Of a DNA stretch of 45,403 nt, positions 1,961-45,403 are shown one piece after another. The notes beneath the pieces were generated by a model that made no database searches, had not been told where the DNA came from, and was given only the letters and a program-made list of their open reading frames with translations. Location of the stretch: the sequence record NC_027330.1; one strand, 5' to 3'. Position 1 is the first letter of the stretch. Each line of letters starts with the position of its first letter. The DNA is from Escherichia phage ECBP5. The position numbers were made by a program, and so were the translations under genes.

Positions 1961-4594
1961 ATGTACACTAGCGATGAGCTTTACCAGAAACAACTTGAGC
2001 TAGAAGGGGAGATGCATGGCTACGGTGTTACTCGCTTTGACCGTAACAACCAACGTGCGATTGATAGCGGTACACCTTCAGACACTGATTGGAACCGCCG
2101 TTTACTTTCTAACTTCATTGAGCCTATGGTGAAGGGTATTAATGCTTATAAGGAGTACTACAAGACTAAAGCTGGACGGCCTACAGTGGCTTTAAAGTAC
2201 ATCCGGCAGGTGCAGCCAGAGCAAGCGGCATACATCGCCATTAAGAACATTCTGGATGTGCTGGGTAGTACAACATTTGATGCTAACTGGCTTGTTACCA
2301 CTATTGGGCGTAGGATTGAAGACCAAGTAAGATTTACTAAGCTTGAGGAGGCTGCACCTAAGTATGTAGGCAAGGTTAAGGATAGCTTAGCTAAGCGCAA
2401 CTCTCTCCAGTATGCACACCAGCATAAGGTACTGGTCGCTACTGAGAAGAAGCTAGCGGAGAATCCAGACCGTGCTCAGCTTGAGCTGCCACGCTGGCAG
2501 GAGTGGGCTGAGGAGGATTGCAAGCACGTTGGTAGCTTGCTGGTCAATATCTTTGAGCAGTGTATTCTGTTTGAGGGTGAGCCAGTAATCCGCAAGGAGG
2601 TGCAGACAGTTCGCAAAGGTACACTGGTCTTCATCAAGCCTACTGAGAAAGTTACCAAGTGGATTCATGAGTTCAGAGAGGCTATTGGCGGGCTTGCTCC
2701 AGCTTACGCACCTTGCGTAGTTCCTCCGCTTGATTGGACTTCCCCATTTACTGGCGGGTTCCATACTGAAGCTGTTAGCAGCACTCTACATCTTGCTAAG
2801 GTTCGCAACAAGCGCCACCTGCGCAAGCTGACTAAAGAGCAGATGCCAGCAGTCTACAAGGCTGTAAATAACTTGCAGAAAGTGCGCTGGCGTATCTCTG
2901 AGCGTGTACTGGCAACCGCTAATACACTAGTGGAGCTGGGCTTGCCTTATGCGCTGCCGTCAAAGGATGAAAGCGACTGGAAAGAAAAGAATCCATGCCC
3001 TGTACCTGAGTACCTGCAAGACCTGCGAGGCGAGCAGCTGAAAGCGGCGCTTACTGCCAGCCAGTGGGAGGCTTTTCAAGAGTGGAAACAACTGGCACGC
3101 CAGAACTACGACGAGGAGAGCGAGCGCGTAGCAAGCTTTAGGGAAGTTGTTCGTACTTTAGGGCAGGCTAACCGCTACGTTGGCTTTGATGCAATCTACT
3201 TTGTGTACACGCTGGACTTTCGCGGGCGTGTCTACTGCCAGAGCAGCCTTGTAAGCCCACAGGGTGGCGACTTGCAGAAAGCCCTCATCAAGTTTGCGGA
3301 TGGTATGAAGCTGGGTGAGCGCGGCGAGTACTGGTTCAAGGTGCATGGCGCTAACGAATGGGGCTGGGATAAGAAGACCTTTGATGAGCGCGTAGCTCTG
3401 GTCAGCGAACCTGAGTTCTGCGAGATGTGCCTAGACATTGCCAGTGACCCAGTGACCTTCAATGACTGGATTAAGGCCGATAAGCCGTGGCAGTTCCTCA
3501 ACTGGTGCTTTGAGTATGCTGACTTCCTGAAGCATGTGCAATCAGCTGGCAACCCACAGGACTTTGTAAGCTATATCCCTTGTGCAATGGATGGTTCTTG
3601 CTCTGGCATCCAGCACTACTCTGCAATGCTGCGCGATACTGTTGGCGGTACTGCTGTTAACTTGGTTAACTCTGACAAGCCTAATGACATCTACGGAGAG
3701 GTCTGCAAGGTGACTATTAAAGAGCTGCAAGCAATTGCTGACGGCTCACAGGTATATGACAGCAAGATTGACCCTGTATTAGCTCAGCAGCTGGCGCAGG
3801 AGTGGCTACGTCTGCAACCAAATCGCAGCCTGACCAAGAAACCTGTTATGACCCTGCCTTACGGCAGCACTCAGTTAACCTGCCGTGAGCATGTTAGCCA
3901 GTGGCTTAAAGATTTGCAGAAGGAGGAGAACAAGCGAGCTAAGGCAGAGTTCAGAGAGCCTATGAAGGTACACGCTTTCGGCGATGCAGACAGCGCTATG
4001 CCGCTAAAGTTTGCTGAGTCTCTTATGACTAGCATTGTTTGGCACTCTATCGGCAAGGTTGTAGTAGCTGCGAGGGCTGGTATGGCTTACATCAAAGCCG
4101 TAACAAGCTCAGTGGCTAAGATGAATATGCCGCTTGAGTGGACTACTCCAACAGGCTTTATTGTCCGTCAGGAGATTTACCAGTTCACAACACGTCAGGT
4201 AAATACTCAGCTGCTGGGTGGAACTAAGTTTGTGGTCAGCACTAAGAGTAAAGATATTGATTATCATCGTATGATTAACTCCTGTGCGCCTAACTTTGTT
4301 CACTCAATGGATGCGAGCCACCTTACACTGGCAACTAACTACTTTGCAGATGCAGGTATTAGCAGCATTGCAGTAATCCATGATAGCTTTGGCACACATG
4401 CAGGAGCCACTGACCTGCTGCGTGAGCGTCTGCGAGCTTCAATGGTAGATATGTACGAACAGCATGACGTTATCACTAACTTCCTTGCTGAAACTGAGGG
4501 CAGACTTATGACAGCTTTTGAGCACATTCGAGTGCCAGAGCGTGGTGAGCTGCAACTTGATAGCATTAATCAATCTACATACGCTTTTGCGTGA
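1961..4594 (+). CDS. Single-subunit DNA-directed RNA polymerase (T7 gene 1 homologue)
   Basis: 877 aa; T7 RNAP-like segments DGSCSGIQHYSAMLRD, APNFVHSMDASHL, HDSFGTHA and C-terminal ...YAFA. Confidence 0.95.
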   Translation: MYTSDELYQKQLELEGEMHGYGVTRFDRNNQRAIDSGTPSDTDWNRRLLSNFIEPMVKGINAYKEYYKTKAGRPTVALKYIRQVQPEQAAYIAIKNILDVLGSTTFDANWLVTTIGRRIEDQVRFTKLEEAAPKYVGKVKDSLAKRNSLQYAHQHKVLVATEKKLAENPDRAQLELPRWQEWAEEDCKHVGSLLVNIFEQCILFEGEPVIRKEVQTVRKGTLVFIKPTEKVTKWIHEFREAIGGLAPAYAPCVVPPLDWTSPFTGGFHTEAVSSTLHLAKVRNKRHLRKLTKEQMPAVYKAVNNLQKVRWRISERVLATANTLVELGLPYALPSKDESDWKEKNPCPVPEYLQDLRGEQLKAALTASQWEAFQEWKQLARQNYDEESERVASFREVVRTLGQANRYVGFDAIYFVYTLDFRGRVYCQSSLVSPQGGDLQKALIKFADGMKLGERGEYWFKVHGANEWGWDKKTFDERVALVSEPEFCEMCLDIASDPVTFNDWIKADKPWQFLNWCFEYADFLKHVQSAGNPQDFVSYIPCAMDGSCSGIQHYSAMLRDTVGGTAVNLVNSDKPNDIYGEVCKVTIKELQAIADGSQVYDSKIDPVLAQQLAQEWLRLQPNRSLTKKPVMTLPYGSTQLTCREHVSQWLKDLQKEENKRAKAEFREPMKVHAFGDADSAMPLKFAESLMTSIVWHSIGKVVVAARAGMAYIKAVTSSVAKMNMPLEWTTPTGFIVRQEIYQFTTRQVNTQLLGGTKFVVSTKSKDIDYHRMINSCAPNFVHSMDASHLTLATNYFADAGISSIAVIHDSFGTHAGATDLLRERLRASMVDMYEQHDVITNFLAETEGRLMTAFEHIRVPERGELQLDSINQSTYAFA

Positions 4595-5994: not shown

Positions 5995-6078
5995 GTACTA
6001 GTTTGATAGTACAGTTGTTGAGAGTTATTCTCAGTCTAGTATACTAGACTAGACCGAATCGTACTAGTTGGCTAGTAC
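5995..6078. repeat. Cluster of three short palindromes
   Basis: GTACTAGTTTGATAGTAC, AGTCTAGTATACTAGACT and GTACTAGTTGGCTAGTAC in tandem. Confidence 0.7.
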
Positions 6079-35865: not shown

Positions 35866-36099
35866 TTGATTCATGAGAAAGTAGGTGAGGTTGCAGCTGA
35901 AGCATTTAAGGCCACACCACCAACTGTTGTTGTTGGCCTGAACATCTTAGGTTACTCAATCTCTGAGTGGGTTCAGGTAGCTACACTTATCTATATCTTC
36001 TTACAGATGCATGTGCTAGCTATTAAGAATATAAGTTCATATAAATCCATGTGGGATTATGTTAAGGAGGTTATTCGTGGCAAGCGTAAGCAAGAGTAA
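35866..36099 (+). CDS. Class II holin (T7 gp17.5-like)
   Basis: 77 aa; TTG start after AGGAGG; hydrophobic SISEWVQVATLIYIFLQ resembles T7 gp17.5 SLNEWFYVAAIAYTVVQ; basic C-terminus. Confidence 0.6.
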   Translation: MIHEKVGEVAAEAFKATPPTVVVGLNILGYSISEWVQVATLIYIFLQMHVLAIKNISSYKSMWDYVKEVIRGKRKQE

Positions 36100-36403
36100 T
36101 AAGAATTCAGCCACAGAGGATGATGTAGGCCTTATCCATAAGCTTGTTACTAAGGTCATCACTAAGAAGCTTGAGAAGTGGTTAGAGCTTATTGAGCAGG
36201 GTGGTGACGTAGATTTAGTTGTGGATATGAAACAGCTCAAGTCTGCCATCGACTGGTGTGACAAGAATGGCATTGTATGTGCTGACCCAGCTGAGCAGAG
36301 TGACAATGAGCTTGGTGATAAACTGTCTGAGATTCGTAAAGCTCAACACGCTCGTGGTGTTGTCGTTCCATTCAAAGAGGATGAGGAGGGTTATGGTACA
36401 TGA
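36077..36403 (+). CDS. Terminase small subunit (T7 gp18-like)
   Basis: GTG start 6 nt after AAGGAGG; about 108 aa; directly upstream of and overlapping the large terminase gene. Confidence 0.6.
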   Translation: MASVSKSNKNSATEDDVGLIHKLVTKVITKKLEKWLELIEQGGDVDLVVDMKQLKSAIDWCDKNGIVCADPAEQSDNELGDKLSEIRKAQHARGVVVPFKEDEEGYGT

Positions 36404-38250
36404 GGCGTGTTAACAGGAACGACAAGAAAGCACAGCTAGAAATGTGGGAGGAGCTTGAAGCGATACAGAAAGCTTTTCCATTTACTGTGCAAGGCTTGTG
36501 GCTGTTTGCCTCACTTGTGCTTGAGAAGACTATTGTAGGCTCTCCTCACCTTAATCGCACACAGAAAGACATTCTTAGCTTCCTGCTTAACGGCGGGAAG
36601 TATATAGGCATACAGGCAAGCCGTGGTATGACCAAGACAGTTATGGCAGCTATCCTATGCTGCTTCTGTCTTATCCACATGCCACACTATCGTATCATTG
36701 TATTCTCACAGAACGGTAAGCGAGCTAAAGAGATTGCAGGCTGGGTAGTTAAAATCTTCTATGCTATAGACATCCTTGAGGTATTGCAGCCAGATACCTA
36801 TGCTGGCGACCGTTCATCCATTGAAGCTTTTGATATTCATTGGTGCTTCCGTGGTGCTGATAAGTCACCATCTGTCACCTGCTATTCTATCGAGTCAGGT
36901 GCGCAGGGTGCTCGTGCTGACCTTATCCTTGCTGATGATATTGAGTCGCTACAAAACTCCCGTACAGCTCAGAGCCGTGAGTGGCTGCTTGAGCAGTCAT
37001 TAGAGTTTGAGTCGATTAACCAGTATGGTCGTATCATCTATCTAGGTACACCTCAGGGTGTTGAGTCTATCTACAACACGCTTCCAGCTCGTGGCTACGT
37101 TATGCGTATCTGGCCTGGCCGTTATCCAACAGCTGAGCAGCTTGAGTTCTATGGCAATGCTCTGGCTCCATTATTCCGTAAGGATATTGAAGCTGACCCA
37201 AGCTTGCAAAGCGGTGGTGGGCTTGATGGTACTATGGGCAAGCCAACAACACCTGCTATGTATGATGAGGAGTTGTTGCAAGAGAAGGAGATGAGGCAAG
37301 GTCTTGCTAAGTTCATGTTGCAGTTCATGGTTCACACAGGTATGTCTGACCGTGACCGCTTCAAGCTTAAGCTAGAGAATCTGGTACTAATGAACTTCAA
37401 TGCCATGCAAGGTGCGGTTATGCCTGTGTGGAACAGTGACCAACGTAGCATGTGGCAAGCTGCCCCTCGCTTTGGTACACGTCCACAAGACAGGTTCTAC
37501 TTTGCTATGCAGCAGCCATATATCATGCGTGACTTTGACCTAACTGTTATGTTCATTGACCCAGCTGGTGGTGGCTCCCGCTCACAGGATGAGATGGGTT
37601 ATGCGATAACCAAGCTACTCGGTACTTATGTCTACATCTATGATGTTGATGGTGTCAAGGGTGGGTATGAACAATCAGAGCTGATGAAGCTTGTACAAGC
37701 TGCTAAGGATGCTAAGGTCAACGTTTGCTATGTTGAAAAGAACTATGGTAACGGTGCTCACTTTGCAATGCTTAAGCCACTGTTTGAGAAGTTTTACCCA
37801 GAGTGTAGGCTTGAGGAAATTAACTCAACAGGTCAGAAGGAACTACGTATCATCGATACACTAGAACCACTGCTGGGTCAGCATCGCTTGGTAGTATCAC
37901 AGACAGCTGTTATGAAGGACTACAACAGCATTCAGAAGTACCCAGCAGAGGTCAAGATGACTTACAGCTGCTTCTACCAACTTGCTCACATAACGAGCGA
38001 CCGTGGGGCGCTGAGGCACGATGACCGCTTAGACGCACTGGCTGGGGCTGTGGCGCAGATTGTCAACTACATCGACTATGACCAAGAGAAGGCCGAGAAA
38101 GACCGACAGGCGGAGGCTGACAAGCATTTCTTTGAGGTTATGGCTAACCCTAATGGTTTCGTCCACACGATGATGCACGGTGGTGATTTTATGAGCTATG
38201 TTGAGCAGCAAAACACCGGAGCCAACGCACTCAAGAAATACTTTAATTAA
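36400..38250 (+). CDS. Terminase large subunit (T7 gp19-like)
   Basis: 616 aa; position after holin/small subunit; ATPase-like LILADDIESL segment. Confidence 0.8.
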   Translation: MRRVNRNDKKAQLEMWEELEAIQKAFPFTVQGLWLFASLVLEKTIVGSPHLNRTQKDILSFLLNGGKYIGIQASRGMTKTVMAAILCCFCLIHMPHYRIIVFSQNGKRAKEIAGWVVKIFYAIDILEVLQPDTYAGDRSSIEAFDIHWCFRGADKSPSVTCYSIESGAQGARADLILADDIESLQNSRTAQSREWLLEQSLEFESINQYGRIIYLGTPQGVESIYNTLPARGYVMRIWPGRYPTAEQLEFYGNALAPLFRKDIEADPSLQSGGGLDGTMGKPTTPAMYDEELLQEKEMRQGLAKFMLQFMVHTGMSDRDRFKLKLENLVLMNFNAMQGAVMPVWNSDQRSMWQAAPRFGTRPQDRFYFAMQQPYIMRDFDLTVMFIDPAGGGSRSQDEMGYAITKLLGTYVYIYDVDGVKGGYEQSELMKLVQAAKDAKVNVCYVEKNYGNGAHFAMLKPLFEKFYPECRLEEINSTGQKELRIIDTLEPLLGQHRLVVSQTAVMKDYNSIQKYPAEVKMTYSCFYQLAHITSDRGALRHDDRLDALAGAVAQIVNYIDYDQEKAEKDRQAEADKHFFEVMANPNGFVHTMMHGGDFMSYVEQQNTGANALKKYFN

Positions 38251-38283: not shown

Positions 38284-38305
38284 ATTAGGCACTACAATAG
38301 GAGAA
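38284..38305 (+). promoter_or_regulatory. Phage-RNAP promoter candidate (consensus copy)
   Basis: ATTAGGCACTACAATAGGAGAA followed by AGTAAG-repeat leader. Confidence 0.6.
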
Positions 38306-40855: not shown

Positions 40856-42484
40856 ATGGCTAAACTTACAAGAGTAACGGACGCATTTGTGTACGTTAAG
40901 TCTAAATTAGCTGGAGCAATCCAGCGACTGTTAGAAGACAAGATGACTGACACTCTATCCATTAAGGATTTTGGTGCAGTCGGAGATGGTGTGCATGATG
41001 ACACAGATGCAATCATTGCAGCCTTCGCAGCTGCTAAGAACAAGTTTGGGGTCATTGCACCCTCAGGCCGTTATCGTGTAACCAGAGAGATTCCAGTCGA
41101 TTATGCACTGGTACTTATCGGGGAAGGTGGGAATGGCTTTAAGGGTACAAACTCAAGCCACAATCCATCGCCTCACTTTGGCACTACCTTTGTAAGTGAC
41201 ATGGCTAGTGGATACGTGTTCAATATCTCACCTGCTGCTTTCCAGTTTGGTCTTACCTTGCGTGACTTCTCTATCGAGCGTAACGAGTCATTAGGTATCA
41301 ACAATGCACGAGGTATGAGACTACATAATGTAGGGTGGACTGGTATCGTAGACAACGTGTGTATTGATGGCTTCTGGGAACATGGCTTGGTTATTGGTTA
41401 TATCCAAGATACACACTTCCGAGGCTGTACGGTATTACGTTGTGGTAATGAAGATGTGCCTAGTATTGAGATTGTTAATGACTCAAACTACGTATACTTC
41501 TTAAACTGCCATATCGAGTATTCTCCGTTCCTGTTCAAGAATACTGGCAATGCTTGGGAAGTTCACTTCACAAATAACCACTTTGAAGTTGCACAGTACG
41601 GCTCTAGCTCTGGTCTGCCTACCTTGAAGTATAAGCAAGCTCCGCTACAGCTTGGTGGTGGCAACATGGTTACTTTCAATACTTGTACAATTGTACCAGT
41701 ATCTGATGAGTATCTTCAGACTGCCCTTGGCATACCGTTTGACTCTTTACCATATTTCATTACTGGCTCGGGTTCATTCGTCAAGTTCATCAACTGCTCT
41801 GGTATTGCGCCAGAAGGTTCTGTCAGCTACATGTACCTAACAGGTACTGGTAATAAGGTACTTGGTGGCACATGGAAAGACATGACACCTAGGCGCCCTA
41901 GTATTGTCCTTGAAGATGGTGACATTGCTAATAACACATTAGCTATCCGTGTAGCTGCTGATGAGACAAAGCTGTACGGTGTCTTAGTCAATACTCGTGG
42001 CAAGATTACTGATAACTTGTTAACTGCATCAGGTACAGCGTCTACTACACGCAGAACTACTGGCATCCTTGTTGGATGTAGCCCTAGTGCGCCATTAGGA
42101 GCTGTTCAAGTTAGTGGTAACACTTATGACCTTGGTAATAGACCTAACCGCTATGTCTACCATCGTATTCAGATCAGTGGTCATGATGGAGGCTGCTCTT
42201 ACTTTGAGGGTATTAATGCCGCATTGTTTGACTTGGACTATGAGCTTTATAACCCTGCTGCAAACTTTGCTATGTGGAATACAACCTCATGGCAAGTGAC
42301 CAGTCAGGTCAATATGAATCCAGGACGTGTAGTAATGTTCCACGCAGGTGCAATAGCTGGATTTATTAATTACAGTGCATATGTAAAGAATGCTACGTTT
42401 AATAACCTTGCAGTAGAAGCTGGTGCATCTATTATGTACAAAGGCATCTCTGACGGTGAAGCAAGGATGTTCCAAGTTAAGTAA
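40856..42484 (+). CDS. Tailspike with pectate-lyase-like beta-helix domain (putative polysaccharide depolymerase)
   Basis: IKDFGAVGDGVHDDTDAIIAAF is a pectate-lyase-type beta-helix N-cap signature; 542 aa. Confidence 0.85.
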   Translation: MAKLTRVTDAFVYVKSKLAGAIQRLLEDKMTDTLSIKDFGAVGDGVHDDTDAIIAAFAAAKNKFGVIAPSGRYRVTREIPVDYALVLIGEGGNGFKGTNSSHNPSPHFGTTFVSDMASGYVFNISPAAFQFGLTLRDFSIERNESLGINNARGMRLHNVGWTGIVDNVCIDGFWEHGLVIGYIQDTHFRGCTVLRCGNEDVPSIEIVNDSNYVYFLNCHIEYSPFLFKNTGNAWEVHFTNNHFEVAQYGSSSGLPTLKYKQAPLQLGGGNMVTFNTCTIVPVSDEYLQTALGIPFDSLPYFITGSGSFVKFINCSGIAPEGSVSYMYLTGTGNKVLGGTWKDMTPRRPSIVLEDGDIANNTLAIRVAADETKLYGVLVNTRGKITDNLLTASGTASTTRRTTGILVGCSPSAPLGAVQVSGNTYDLGNRPNRYVYHRIQISGHDGGCSYFEGINAALFDLDYELYNPAANFAMWNTTSWQVTSQVNMNPGRVVMFHAGAIAGFINYSAYVKNATFNNLAVEAGASIMYKGISDGEARMFQVK

Positions 42485-42567
42485 TAAGTATTAATACTTA
42501 TTGAATCGTAACCAATTGGCAGCTTGCTAGGTAGTTATAGTAAGCTGCTGTTAACTGGAGTAAAGTT

Positions 42568-42696
42568 ATGTTATCTAATCAAGAGTTATTAGAAAAGTTT
42601 GATGAACTTATGTCACATCTCAATAGTGAAGACAACAGTATGGCTGAGGAGTTCAGAATTAATCTAGAGGAAGTATTAGAGTATCTTGTAAGCTAG
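42568..42696 (+). CDS. Small acidic hypothetical protein (42 aa)
   Basis: GGAG RBS 8 nt upstream; helical acidic peptide; weak support. Confidence 0.3.
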   Translation: MLSNQELLEKFDELMSHLNSEDNSMAEEFRINLEEVLEYLVS

Positions 42697-42873
42697 CTAG
42701 GTAGCCATTAGTGGTTACTGTAAGCTGGCCTTGAAACTTAAAATAGGGTGGACAGTTACAGCAGTTCCCGCCGCCGCCAGCTTCAGCTTTCCCCCATCGG
42801 GGTGGCTGCTGGCAACCTCTTAGGCCGCAGGCAGTTAGAGGGGGGGTGGGTAGGCTGGCTAGGTAGCTGGCAG

Positions 42874-43033
42874 TAGACCGACTGGTCTAGCGTAAGTCAT
42901 TGATGTTGTATCAGCTAACGAGTACATGAGAGCGCTGTACGTGAATACTTGCTGGCTCAAGCTGGCTGTGGCTCACAGAATTCTCCAGAGTGCGCTATAC
43001 ATATCAATGACTTACGTTAGACCGACTGGTCTA
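42874..43033. repeat. Two direct copies of 16-bp near-palindrome TAGACCGACTGGTCTA flanking an inverted repeat CGTAAGTCATTGAT / ATCAATGACTTACG
   Basis: Copies at 42874-42889 and 43018-43033; inverted repeat arms at 42891-42904 and 43003-43016. Confidence 0.75.
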
Positions 43034-43486
43034 CTAGTGGCTGGTCAGGCAGCTGCTGTGAGCTGGCTAGGTGGCTTACGGATAGCCGATTGTGAGCAGC
43101 CAGTGAGCCGCTGTGGGCTTCAGCTCCGCTGTGGCTACGGTTGGCTTGCCAGTGGCTTGAGGCGCTCTGTGAGCTGCTGAGGGCTGTGGCTTGCTGTACT
43201 CGTGTGCTAGTACGCTGCTGTGTGTATCTGTCTTTAGTCTGATGGGCTACTGTCTTTAGTTTGCTGCACCACTGGTAGCTTATTGGGTAGCTCATAGGTA
43301 GCTTACAAGGCTCACAGCTTGCTGGTACTACTGAGGGCTTACTAGGTAGCTTGCTATCACTGACTAGGTAGCTGCTGTTAGTTCACTAGGTAGCTAGCTA
43401 TGGCTTACTAGGTAGTTACTAGGTGGATTGATGTAAGCTTACTCAAGCTCTCTCTTAGTGCATCATTCGATGCACAATATAAGAAG

Positions 43487-43510
43487 AATAAGACACTACA
43501 ATAAGAATAG
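43487..43510 (+). promoter_or_regulatory. Phage-RNAP promoter-like motif (variant) near presumed left end
   Basis: AATAAGACACTACAATAAGAATAG. Confidence 0.4.
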
Positions 43511-43588
43511 AGTACGCCTTGCCAACAGCTCTCATGAGCTATCTAGGTGGCTTACTATCACTTACATCCAACTAACTAGGAGGCTTAC

Positions 43589-43687
43589 ATGAGCCTAGAT
43601 ATGCTGTACACACTAGTAGTCTGCTTTCTCATTAACTTGTTTGTACACTTCATAGCATTTAGCTTGCTAGAGGTATTGGCTGGGTAG
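43589..43687 (+). CDS. Small hydrophobic peptide (32 aa)
   Basis: TAGGAGG RBS 7 nt upstream of ATG; single hydrophobic helix; weak support. Confidence 0.25.
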   Translation: MSLDMLYTLVVCFLINLFVHFIAFSLLEVLAG

Positions 43688-43693
43688 CTTGAG

Positions 43694-43712
43694 TCAGTCT
43701 AGTACACTAGAT
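43694..43712. repeat. Palindrome family copy
   Basis: CAGTCTAGTACACTAGATT. Confidence 0.6.
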
Positions 43713-43745
43713 TAAGCTAATGTGAGCTACATCACTAAAATAGTG

Positions 43746-43774
43746 TTGACTAGGTAGCTCACTGCCTGTATAGT
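43746..43774 (+). promoter_or_regulatory. Host sigma70-type early promoter candidate
   Basis: TTGACT, 17-bp spacer, TATAGT; downstream TACTTACA resembles the T7 A1 start region. Confidence 0.45.
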
Positions 43775-44031
43775 TACTTACATCAAGACGACACAGCAAC
43801 AAGTTATCTTGATAGTGGCTCTAGTAGCTACTTGCTCTTTAACAATATGATGATTAGAAGCTTAGGCTGTACGGGTATTACTTCTCCTCAATCCGTCGCA
43901 AGACATCAGTGAGAGGCTAGCAGGAAGCGCTAGGGCAATAGAAAGTGACCTTATGCAGTGCTGCTAATCATCAAGCTCTTTAACAATCTGGAATCTACCT
44001 GATAGGCTTACTACAACAAAGGTGAACTATC

Positions 44032-44277
44032 ATGGCTATGAACAAAGTTAAATCTCCATTCGTCAAGATACTGCGTAAGGCTGGCTACTCAGTTAAGGAA
44101 GCAATGAACATCACGCTAGATGCTCAATACAACTTTCATAACACCAGACGCTGCTCAAGCAAGCACTTTAATCACTTGGCTAAGAATGGCAGGGTTGGTT
44201 GTATGTTCCAGTGGGATAACACCCCTGAGGGAGTACAATACTGGAATTATGTGCAGTCTGCGCTTAACAATAGTTAG
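44032..44277 (+). CDS. Early hypothetical protein (81 aa)
   Basis: AAAGGTGA RBS; basic protein. Confidence 0.6.
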   Translation: MAMNKVKSPFVKILRKAGYSVKEAMNITLDAQYNFHNTRRCSSKHFNHLAKNGRVGCMFQWDNTPEGVQYWNYVQSALNNS

Positions 44278-44661
44278 TAATAGATAGCTGCTGGCACTAG
44301 CCAGCCTATCAGGTAGATTCTGGAAGGATAGGAAGTTGAATAGAGCTGATGAAAGCTCTTGTGACCGCTCAAGCGGTGCTAATTAACCTAAGAATGCTCA
44401 GCTAGTGCGAGTCACACCAGAAAGGTGCTGAGCAGCTTATTAAGGTGAGCTTGATAGACTAACCACAACCAATAGGTAGCTATCATGATTTACATCCCAC
44501 TTAAGACTTACATACTGGCTATAACTTACACTGCTGTTGTGATTACAACAGCTTGTTTAGTGCTGATGTACGCTGACAGGTACATGTAACAAGGCTAGCC
44601 AGCAGCTGCTGGCAGTCTATCAAGCTTACTTTCAACTGATAGAACAACTGGAGATACAAAG

Positions 44662-44937
44662 ATGCAAACAGTGACTACTAAATACCTGCCAGCTACTAAC
44701 ACTCGTGGGGCACGCATCAAAGTCTCAAGCTGGTTAGGTAATAAAACCTTTAGCTATGACTATGCAGCCAGCTGTGCTCATGAAGCAGCTTTTAATGAGT
44801 GGTTAAAAGAGCAGAATGAAAGAATTGCTTTTGAGTGCCACTCAAATAATCTGAAAGCTAAGGCTGGCGGTTGGTTCAAGCTTGTAGCTAAAGGCAGCTT
44901 GCCGGATGGCAACGGTTACGGGTTTATTGTTAAGTAG
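44662..44937 (+). CDS. Early hypothetical protein (91 aa)
   Basis: GGAGA RBS. Confidence 0.6.
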   Translation: MQTVTTKYLPATNTRGARIKVSSWLGNKTFSYDYAASCAHEAAFNEWLKEQNERIAFECHSNNLKAKAGGWFKLVAKGSLPDGNGYGFIVK

Positions 44938-45192: not shown

Positions 45193-45403
45193 ATGAGCAG
45201 GGAATTATCTTTAAGGTTTAATGAATCTAATAAGCGCATGGATGCATTGCTAAGTGCAATGAATAGGGCTAACCCTCTATCAGTAGAGTATGAGGAGCTT
45301 AGTAAAATGGCTCACAGCGAGTTGCAAACAATGCAAGCTATTAACAACAGCTCATTGCAACAACTAGAAATGCACTGGACAACCTCAGGTGACTTTAGCC
45401 ACC
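45193..45403 (+). CDS. Early hypothetical protein, 5' portion (continues at 1..234 across the wrap-around)
   Basis: ATG at 45193 one base after the upstream stop; open to the window end. Confidence 0.5.
   Translation, partial: MSRELSLRFNESNKRMDALLSAMNRANPLSVEYEELSKMAHSELQTMQAINNSSLQQLEMHWTTSGDFSH
45196..45403. repeat. Exact duplicate of 1-208
   Basis: Identical to window start. Confidence 0.9.

Follow-up and report, generated by a model that had tools for sequence, protein, structure and literature searches.

Escherichia phage ECBP5 is represented by one stretch of 45,403 nucleotides (NC_027330.1; "the window" below means this whole stretch at its full length), and the 1,547 nt that separate its tailspike gene from its first early gene (42485-44031, 3.4% of the genome) raise the question of whether the physical ends of the virion DNA lie there rather than at the window edges, as an earlier note made from the letters alone had proposed. 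We consider it likely (probability about 0.85) that the concatemer junction of a T7/SP6-type genome lies in this region, with a direct terminal repeat of about 459 bp that was collapsed to one copy by the assembler; when T7-like phages are assembled from short reads, terminal repeats are known to be lost or misplaced (PMC10438801). Because three boundary motifs occur here at the same distances as in two phages with mapped ends, we place the repeat at 42767-43225, with 42767 as the predicted left end of the virion DNA and 43225 as the predicted right end, each to within about 2 nt, since the boundaries differ by 1-2 nt among the phages compared.

The two phages with mapped ends are Pantoea phage Nufs112, whose 410-bp terminal repeat was mapped with PhageTerm and by run-off Sanger sequencing (PMC9915841), and Aeromonas phage Tola, whose 631-bp repeat was mapped with PhageTerm (PMC9145550); both repeats are annotated in their records, and neither phage was retrieved by blastn with the region studied here. 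In each of them exactly 19 nt separate TAAAATAGG from the repeat start, a further 24 nt lead to CCCCCAT.GGGG, and ATCTGTY follows immediately on the repeat end; this boundary pattern is common to these two phages and ECBP5. In the window, the left boundary reads ...CTTAAAATAGG, 19 nt, and then the repeat start CCCGCCGCCGCCAGCTTCAGCTTT-CCCCCATCGGGG..., and the right boundary reads ...GCTGCTGTGTGT on the inner side and ATCTGTCTTTAG on the outer. Every element named in the earlier note was present where the note had placed it, and the features of the region are collected in Table 1.

Table 1. Features of the predicted concatemer junction and its surroundings (window coordinates).
Feature	Position	Strand	Basis or remark
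T7-type small terminase gene (TerS)	36059-36403	+	Pfam PF11123 and PF22530 for the terminase pair
T7-type large terminase gene (TerL)	36400-38250	+	Pfam PF11123 and PF22530 for the terminase pair
Conserved box with CTAGGTAGTT repeat copy, left of variable cassette	42521-42551	+	42499-42577 conserved in PP99, MR4, JSF38, Z1
Probable small gene, 42 residues, acidic, in variable cassette	42568-42696	+	GGAG 8 nt upstream; phrog_6163 match, E = 2.7e-9
Conserved box with CTAGGTAGCC repeat copy, right of cassette	42688-42729	+	Comparison with relatives
TAAAATAGG motif, last base exactly 19 nt before predicted repeat start	42739-42747	+	Same distance in Nufs112 and Tola; kept in close relatives
Predicted direct terminal repeat, 459 bp	42767-43225		Boundary homology to Nufs112, Tola, T7, SP6, K1-5; single copy in assembly
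Near-invariant first 85 nt of repeat: terminal CCCGCCGCCGCC, CCCCCATCGGGG (42791-42802), G-run	42767-42851	+	Alignment of 9 clade repeats
Inverted-repeat element, 164 nt: 33-nt arms, 98-nt centre, TAGACCGACTGGTCTA in each arm	42872-43035		Self-comparison and folding
ATCTGTC directly after repeat, positional counterpart of T7 class II pause signal ATCTGTT	43226-43232	+	Comparison with T7, Nufs112, Tola
Two 22-nt units, each beginning CTGTCTTTAG	43228-43274	+	Tandem Repeats Finder
GGTAGCT / CTAGGTAGCT array, 11/22-nt phasing	43272-43430	+	Repeat search and periodicity
Perfect 7-bp hairpin GTGCATC-ATTC-GATGCAC bordering AT-rich stretch	43458-43475	+	Read from sequence
Variant phage-polymerase promoter AATAAGACACTACAATAAG in AT-rich DNA	43487-43505	+	3 mismatches to ATTAGGCACTACAATAGG
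Window-specific 135-nt insert (relatives about 62 nt)	43542-43676	+	Comparison with relatives
Strong sigma70 early promoter TTGACT-17-TATAGT	43746-43774	+	10/12 consensus positions; about 980 nt from predicted left end
Two GCTCTTTAACAAT boxes flanking 141-nt insert with inverted repeat (43848-43861 / 43960-43973)	43834-43987	+	Comparison with relatives
Leader hairpin TGATAG...CTATCA-TG and first early reading frame (81 residues; gene at 44032)	44000-44277	+	Motif search

Both boundary contexts are nearly unchanged in nine close relatives, while modular insertions and deletions give the interior of the repeat a length of anywhere between 334 and 779 nt; this combination of kept boundaries and variable interior is what would be expected of functional boundaries around a tolerant interior. 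The predicted repeat is a non-coding, GC-rich island between the last late and the first early gene, in a genome whose genes all lie on one strand (about 50 co-directional genes in the window). Its first 85 nt hold terminal CCG triplets, then CCCCCATCGGGG and then a G-run, and the GC-rich block that the earlier note had marked at 42765-42850 (GC 0.66 at 42750-42849 vs 0.459 for the window) is this opening portion of the predicted repeat itself. A second GC- and T-rich block follows at 43050-43199 (GC 0.62-0.64, AT skew -0.5), the right part of the repeat being G/T-rich with many GCT.

The genome encodes both a T7-type terminase (PF22530, PF11123 and TerL homology) and a single-subunit RNA polymerase (gene at 1961-4594; PF00940, PF14700), as well as a protein with a T7-type tail fibre N-domain and, at 40856-42484, a pectate-lyase-like tailspike; cutting at the repeat boundaries is expected of the terminase pair at 36059-38250. 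The large terminase, TerL, shares 99.5% of its residues with that of Pectobacterium phage PP99 and of Klebsiella phages Z1, Roth32 and RCIP0053, with RCIP0089 (99.4%), MR4 (99.0%) and JSF38 (98.1%) close behind and Nufs112 (76%) and Tola (71%) more distant, and both the terminase and the region under study indicate a Gajwadongvirus-like phage (SP6-like branch of the Autographiviridae, SP6/T7 supergroup). The likeness to the repeat arrays and concatemer junction of T7, which had been suggested from the letters, is supported by this type of terminase and RNA polymerase and by the shared boundary signature. As a separate observation on TerL, the match to the gene is split in two pieces in Z1, RCIP0053, RCIP0089 and Edwardsiella phages, the Z1 record annotating an HNH endonuclease under its two-piece match; the TerL gene of the window is uninterrupted.

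Short oriented repeats flank the predicted repeat, and directly at its right edge, on the transcribed strand, stands the pause-like heptamer, a second copy of which is also present in Nufs112 and Tola. With at most one mismatch, CTAGGTAGCT has 19 matches in the window, vs 5.95 +/- 2.28 in shuffles (maximum 11), and 14 of the 19 lie in 42527-43759: 12 on the plus strand (5 exact, 7 with one mismatch), which agrees with the dozen or so repeats originally reported, and two on the minus strand that are palindromic overlaps. The GGTAGCT core is concentrated as well: 9 of its 15 plus-strand copies fall in 42485-44031 (binomial P = 2.7e-10), where the minus strand has none. A period of 22 nt runs through 43226-43440 (z = 5.6 by autocorrelation), and Tandem Repeats Finder marks out arrays at 43228-43274 (period 22), 43274-43305 (period 11) and 43341-43415 (period 22). 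Ten relatives have the array at the same place with respect to the end of the repeat.

We know of no established function for the short-repeat arrays of T7-like phages. Because the GGTAGCT core is kept across three genera (Gajwadongvirus, Nufs112 and Tola) and differs in T7 (CCTAAAG) and SP6 (CCTTAGT), the helically phased and oriented array might serve a phage protein, such as the small terminase or the polymerase-packaging complex, as a recognition code peculiar to the lineage, or else its copies might supply short homology linkers for the exchange of small gene cassettes at the genome ends; we offer this tentatively, as an idea with the odds against it. If it is true, comparing changes in the motif with changes in the protein across lineages could reveal what such arrays do in T7-like phages.

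The same array, together with the AT-rich stretch beyond it, might instead be mainly an iteron-type replication origin, in which case the region need not hold physical ends at all. Four to five direct repeats in 22-nt phase are indeed followed by a hairpin and by an AT-rich segment with a promoter-like site, so that tandem direct repeats do stand next to an AT-rich region. However, T7-like phages begin replication at polymerase promoters beside AT-rich DNA, we know of no iteron-binding initiator among them, and an origin would leave the end signature unexplained, with its boundary motifs that match the mapped ends of relatives; moreover, the phiOL-like site could act as an origin at a concatemer junction as well, and such a role is no alternative to it. 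We regard an iteron-type origin as the principal function of the region as unlikely.

The predicted repeat contains an inverted-repeat element. The two direct copies of TAGACCGACTGGTCTA and the associated inverted repeat that the first reading of the sequence had picked out are present, the exact copies lying at 42874 and 43018, with none elsewhere in the window even when three mismatches are allowed, and these paired palindromes are situated inside the predicted repeat. The arms (42872-42904 and 43003-43035) are 85% complementary and 98 nt apart, and the single-stranded DNA folds at -39.2 kcal/mol, vs -23.3 +/- 3.0 for shuffles (z = -5.3). The 98-nt spacing is retained in MR4, JSF38, Z1, both RCIP phages and the relative L013; the right arm is missing in PP99, Roth32 and the Edwardsiella phage, and Z1, the RCIP phages and L013 have not kept the outer palindrome. 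Covariation within the inverted repeat amounted to two wobble-type transitions and is uninformative.

With its 33-nt terminal inverted arms, and its presence in some relatives and absence from others, the element could be taken for a small non-autonomous mobile element that was inserted in the repeat and is no functional part of the end. Yet it occurs in a single copy in the genome, which is not what a miniature inverted-repeat element would lead one to look for, and has no flanking target duplication; its left arm and centre are homologous to sequence in PP99 and Nufs112, both of which are without the right arm, and the indel boundaries do not match the positions of the arms. A mobile origin seems to us very improbable.

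Nucleotides 1-208 of the window are identical to 45196-45403, and this exact repeat at its start and end could be held to be the true terminal repeat, with 42.5-44 kb merely a regulatory intergenic region. The overlap falls within a small early open reading frame (ORF; ATG at 45194, stop at 234), the records of relatives are opened at different arbitrary points, and the conserved end signature stands at 42767 and 43225, not at the window edges, so that we give this reading hardly any credence. Because the exact edge overlap lies inside an early ORF, the contig is a circularly closed assembly, and the window edges are artefacts of assembly and not physical ends. Its unique length is 45,195 nt, which with the additional 459 bp gives a predicted virion genome of about 45,654 bp. 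The same overlap, together with the boundary motifs of mapped relatives, supports the placement of the true ends that the earlier note had favored. Headful packaging of a circularly permuted genome without fixed ends, which the closure of the assembly as a circle might suggest, is just as remote, in view of the T7-type terminase (PF22530, PF11123) and of a TerL 71-76% identical to those of phages with verified non-permuted short terminal repeats.

Several points weigh against a concatemer junction at this locus. The ends predicted for this genome rest on homology, and public records of the genus all lack an annotated terminal repeat. The consensus for phage promoters, ATTAGGCACTACAATAGG, was built from 7-9 sites, all on the plus strand, and has no match just upstream of the repeat (cf. 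phiOR of T7), the nearest being at 38290. The heptamer at the right edge, ATCTGTC with a T before it, departs by a T-to-C change at position 7 from the signal on which T7 polymerase strictly depends, an exact ATCTGTT with A, C or T before it; for that enzyme, any base change in ATCTGTT abolishes the class II signal (bioRxiv 10.1101/2021.01.11.426313), and the polymerase of this phage is a different one. In an indirect test of pausing, ATCTGTY was not depleted elsewhere on the plus strand (5 observed vs 5.8 expected). Finally, the inverted-repeat element is lineage-specific, being absent from some relatives, and its role is left unexplained by the terminal repeat.

Our search for published termini in the genus found none, and the paper describing PP99 reports none. 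The ends of the PP99 record were rejected as true ends: the record is continuous across them and is cut inside the predicted repeat. A 127-nt terminal overlap in the Z1 record was likewise rejected as the terminal repeat, falling as it does inside the predicted one; it looks like a circular-contig overlap because SPAdes is commonly set to k-mers of up to 127 nt, a k-mer list with this maximum having been used in PMC9145550. Scans of IMG/VR with the boundary motifs, for contigs stopping at physical ends, returned as true relatives only L013 and PP99 itself; the remaining 30 hits are chance 16-mer matches, and the scans are uninformative on the ends.

Starting from the observed anatomy of the sequence, its conservation and its homology to mapped ends, we infer by homology with T7 where the cuts are made, how the polymerase pauses and what parts the array and the inverted repeat play. 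The virion DNA would be linear, about 45,654 bp long, running from CCCGCCGCCGCC at 42767 to a second copy of the repeat finishing ...GCTGTGTGT at 43225. The left end would enter the cell first, and host RNA polymerase would start at the sigma70 promoter (43746-43774), from which the early genes, that of the phage RNA polymerase included, would be transcribed. Replicated genomes would then be joined via their repeats into concatemers with one repeat per junction, which would be the junction that the assembler reported. The T7-type terminase would cut at the two conserved boundaries, and the repeat would be re-duplicated during packaging; the general T7-like model of cutting and repeat duplication is summarised in PMC10438801, and that T7 packaging needs the concatemer junction is cited in PMC13227401. 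The ATCTGTC to the right of the repeat stands where the concatemer junction of T7 has its polymerase pause site, the phased GGTAGCT array may correspond to the short repeats at the T7 left end, and phiOL, which is a secondary origin in T7, may have its counterpart in the variant promoter in AT-rich DNA.

To the right of the array, both the promoter-like variant and the sigma70-type promoter that had been read from the letters were matched. The variant promoter departs from the consensus twice in its upstream specificity part and once at the start site; the promoter is identical in most relatives, 244-313 nt beyond the repeat end, and by analogy is a candidate counterpart of T7 phiOL and a candidate secondary origin. 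The sigma70 promoter is present in eight of the nine close relatives, and the order repeat, array, variant promoter, sigma70 promoter and early gene is likewise conserved in eight of nine; MR4 agrees with this order up to the variant promoter and is without a sigma70 match. The order has parallels at the annotated left end of T7 and in SP6. The window-specific insert at 43542-43676 holds an ORF of 32 amino acids (43589-43687), hydrophobic and with an AGGAGG ribosome-binding site, for which no family match was found. The GCTCTTTAACAAT box, common to SP6 and Nufs112, is present in one copy without the insert in PP99 and JSF38. RNA folding of 43825-44000, a possible RNase III-like site, was no better than shuffles (z = 0.39), and Rfam gave no match at E <= 1 on 42300-44700.

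Two further elements were observed around the early genes. A hairpin of the form TGATAG-N(14-32)-CTATCA stands directly before ATG at 44000-44034 and 44452-44487 (2 matches vs 0.02 expected), enclosing the ribosome-binding site of two early genes, and is also found before SP6 gene 1 and Nufs112 ORF3 (L011 682-715; L007 1163-1197); it may control translation of the early genes. The palindrome (CAG)TCTAGTAYACTAGA(CTG) recurs intergenically at 6035, 6315, 14568, 39339 and 43698, and at 1373 within coding sequence; two copies precede phage promoters by 27-49 nt, and one precedes the sigma70 promoter by 48 nt. Hairpins of a related type, GTACTAGT..CTAGTAC, occur nearby and inside the PP99 and Nufs112 repeats, and the palindrome is possibly a regulator site or an RNA hairpin.

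The claim that the region has almost no coding capacity held for the most part. An 84-residue ORF (42926-43180, plus strand) and a 92-residue ORF (43017-43295, minus strand) were rejected as genes, as they are broken by stops or frameshifts in relatives and have no PHROG hit; the 42-residue ORF at 42568-42696, on the other hand, is probably a real gene because it has a ribosome-binding site and a phrog_6163 match. The cassette in which it lies (42566-42687) is variable, PP99, JSF38 and MR4 having a 76-residue ORF there, and three of four cassette junctions lie within 10 nt of a CTAGGTAGCT copy (rough P about 0.06), which is too weak to claim. Directly after the tailspike stop, at 42483-42502, there is a perfect AT-only palindrome (AATAAGTATT/AATACTTATT), which is not a canonical intrinsic terminator. 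In relatives, many tiny "hypothetical protein" coding sequences are annotated in the predicted repeat or array (MR4 2888-4337, Z1 148-861, Edwardsiella phage 1217-2122); these are probably spurious.

What follows for this genome is a likely pair of true ends and a likely length (about 45.65 kb), and the same rule gives likely ends for about 10 public Gajwadongvirus-like records without an annotated terminal repeat, several of which contain probably spurious small coding sequences inside it. It matters to have the ends right when genomes are rebooted or engineered, classified by intergenomic identity or annotated. A compact signature common to phages from T7 through the SP6-like group can locate collapsed repeats without reads: CCCCCAT.GGGG stands about 25 nt in from the left end, ATCTGTY marks the right edge, and this clade adds TAAAATAGG 19 nt outside the left boundary. 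No new biology is implied. A collapsed terminal repeat is ordinary in this phage family, though unannotated in the genus; the architecture is that of T7 and SP6, and what is modestly new is the read-free prediction of ends for the genome and genus and the explicit boundary rule.

Among phages with mapped ends, Nufs112 and Tola are the closest relatives; like ECBP5, they show the complete boundary pattern, have the pause-like motif in duplicate and carry repeats with the GGTAGCT core to the right of their terminal repeats. Their repeat interiors, in contrast, are not alignable with the one here, and Nufs112 has palindromes of the GTACTAGTAC type where this phage has its TAGACC...GGTCTA element. 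Farther afield, the left-end motif is CCCCCATAGGGGG at nt 26 of the 160-bp repeat of T7 (right boundary ATCTGTT at nt 161), and CCCCATAGGG at nt 29 of the 174-bp repeat of SP6, where the repeat ends in ...CTA and TCTGTT follows; K1-5 (234 bp) has CCCCATAGGG at nt 25 and the right boundary of SP6. Nifs112 (296 bp) has the variant CCCCCTAGGG and the right boundary TATCTGTC, and phiKMV (414 bp) has the variant CCCCCGTAGG and a right boundary without ATCTGT.

The annotated left end of T7 consists of the 160-bp repeat, a CCTAAAG array at 175-355, phiOL at 405, the promoters A1-A3 at 498-750 and gene 0.3 at 925. As in ECBP5, a non-coding repeat separates the last late gene from the first early one; CCCCCAT.GGGG stands about 25 nt from its left end, and ATCTGT directly follows it; a short-repeat array stands to the right, with fewer copies to the left (the right-end short-repeat side of T7 being comparable to the box at 42521-42551), and a phage promoter is followed by sigma70 early promoters, three in T7 and one here. 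The T7 repeat is shorter (160 bp vs about 459 bp) and without a large inverted repeat, its array has a spacing of about 13 nt where the GGTAGCT array has 11/22 nt, its heptamer is ATCTGTT where ours is ATCTGTC, and its phiOR lies about 550 bp upstream of the right repeat, a position at which this phage has no consensus phage promoter. SP6 and K1-5 differ in their shorter repeats, in another array motif (CCTTAGT, to the right of a boundary at (A)TCTGTT), in another promoter consensus and in having no 164-nt inverted-repeat element. In their gene order with the tailspike last, in the GC-rich short tandem repeats that open the repeat before CCCCATAGGG, and in a single sigma70 promoter followed by the GCTCTTTAACAAT box and a TGATAG...CTATCATG leader, SP6 and K1-5 resemble the arrangement described here.

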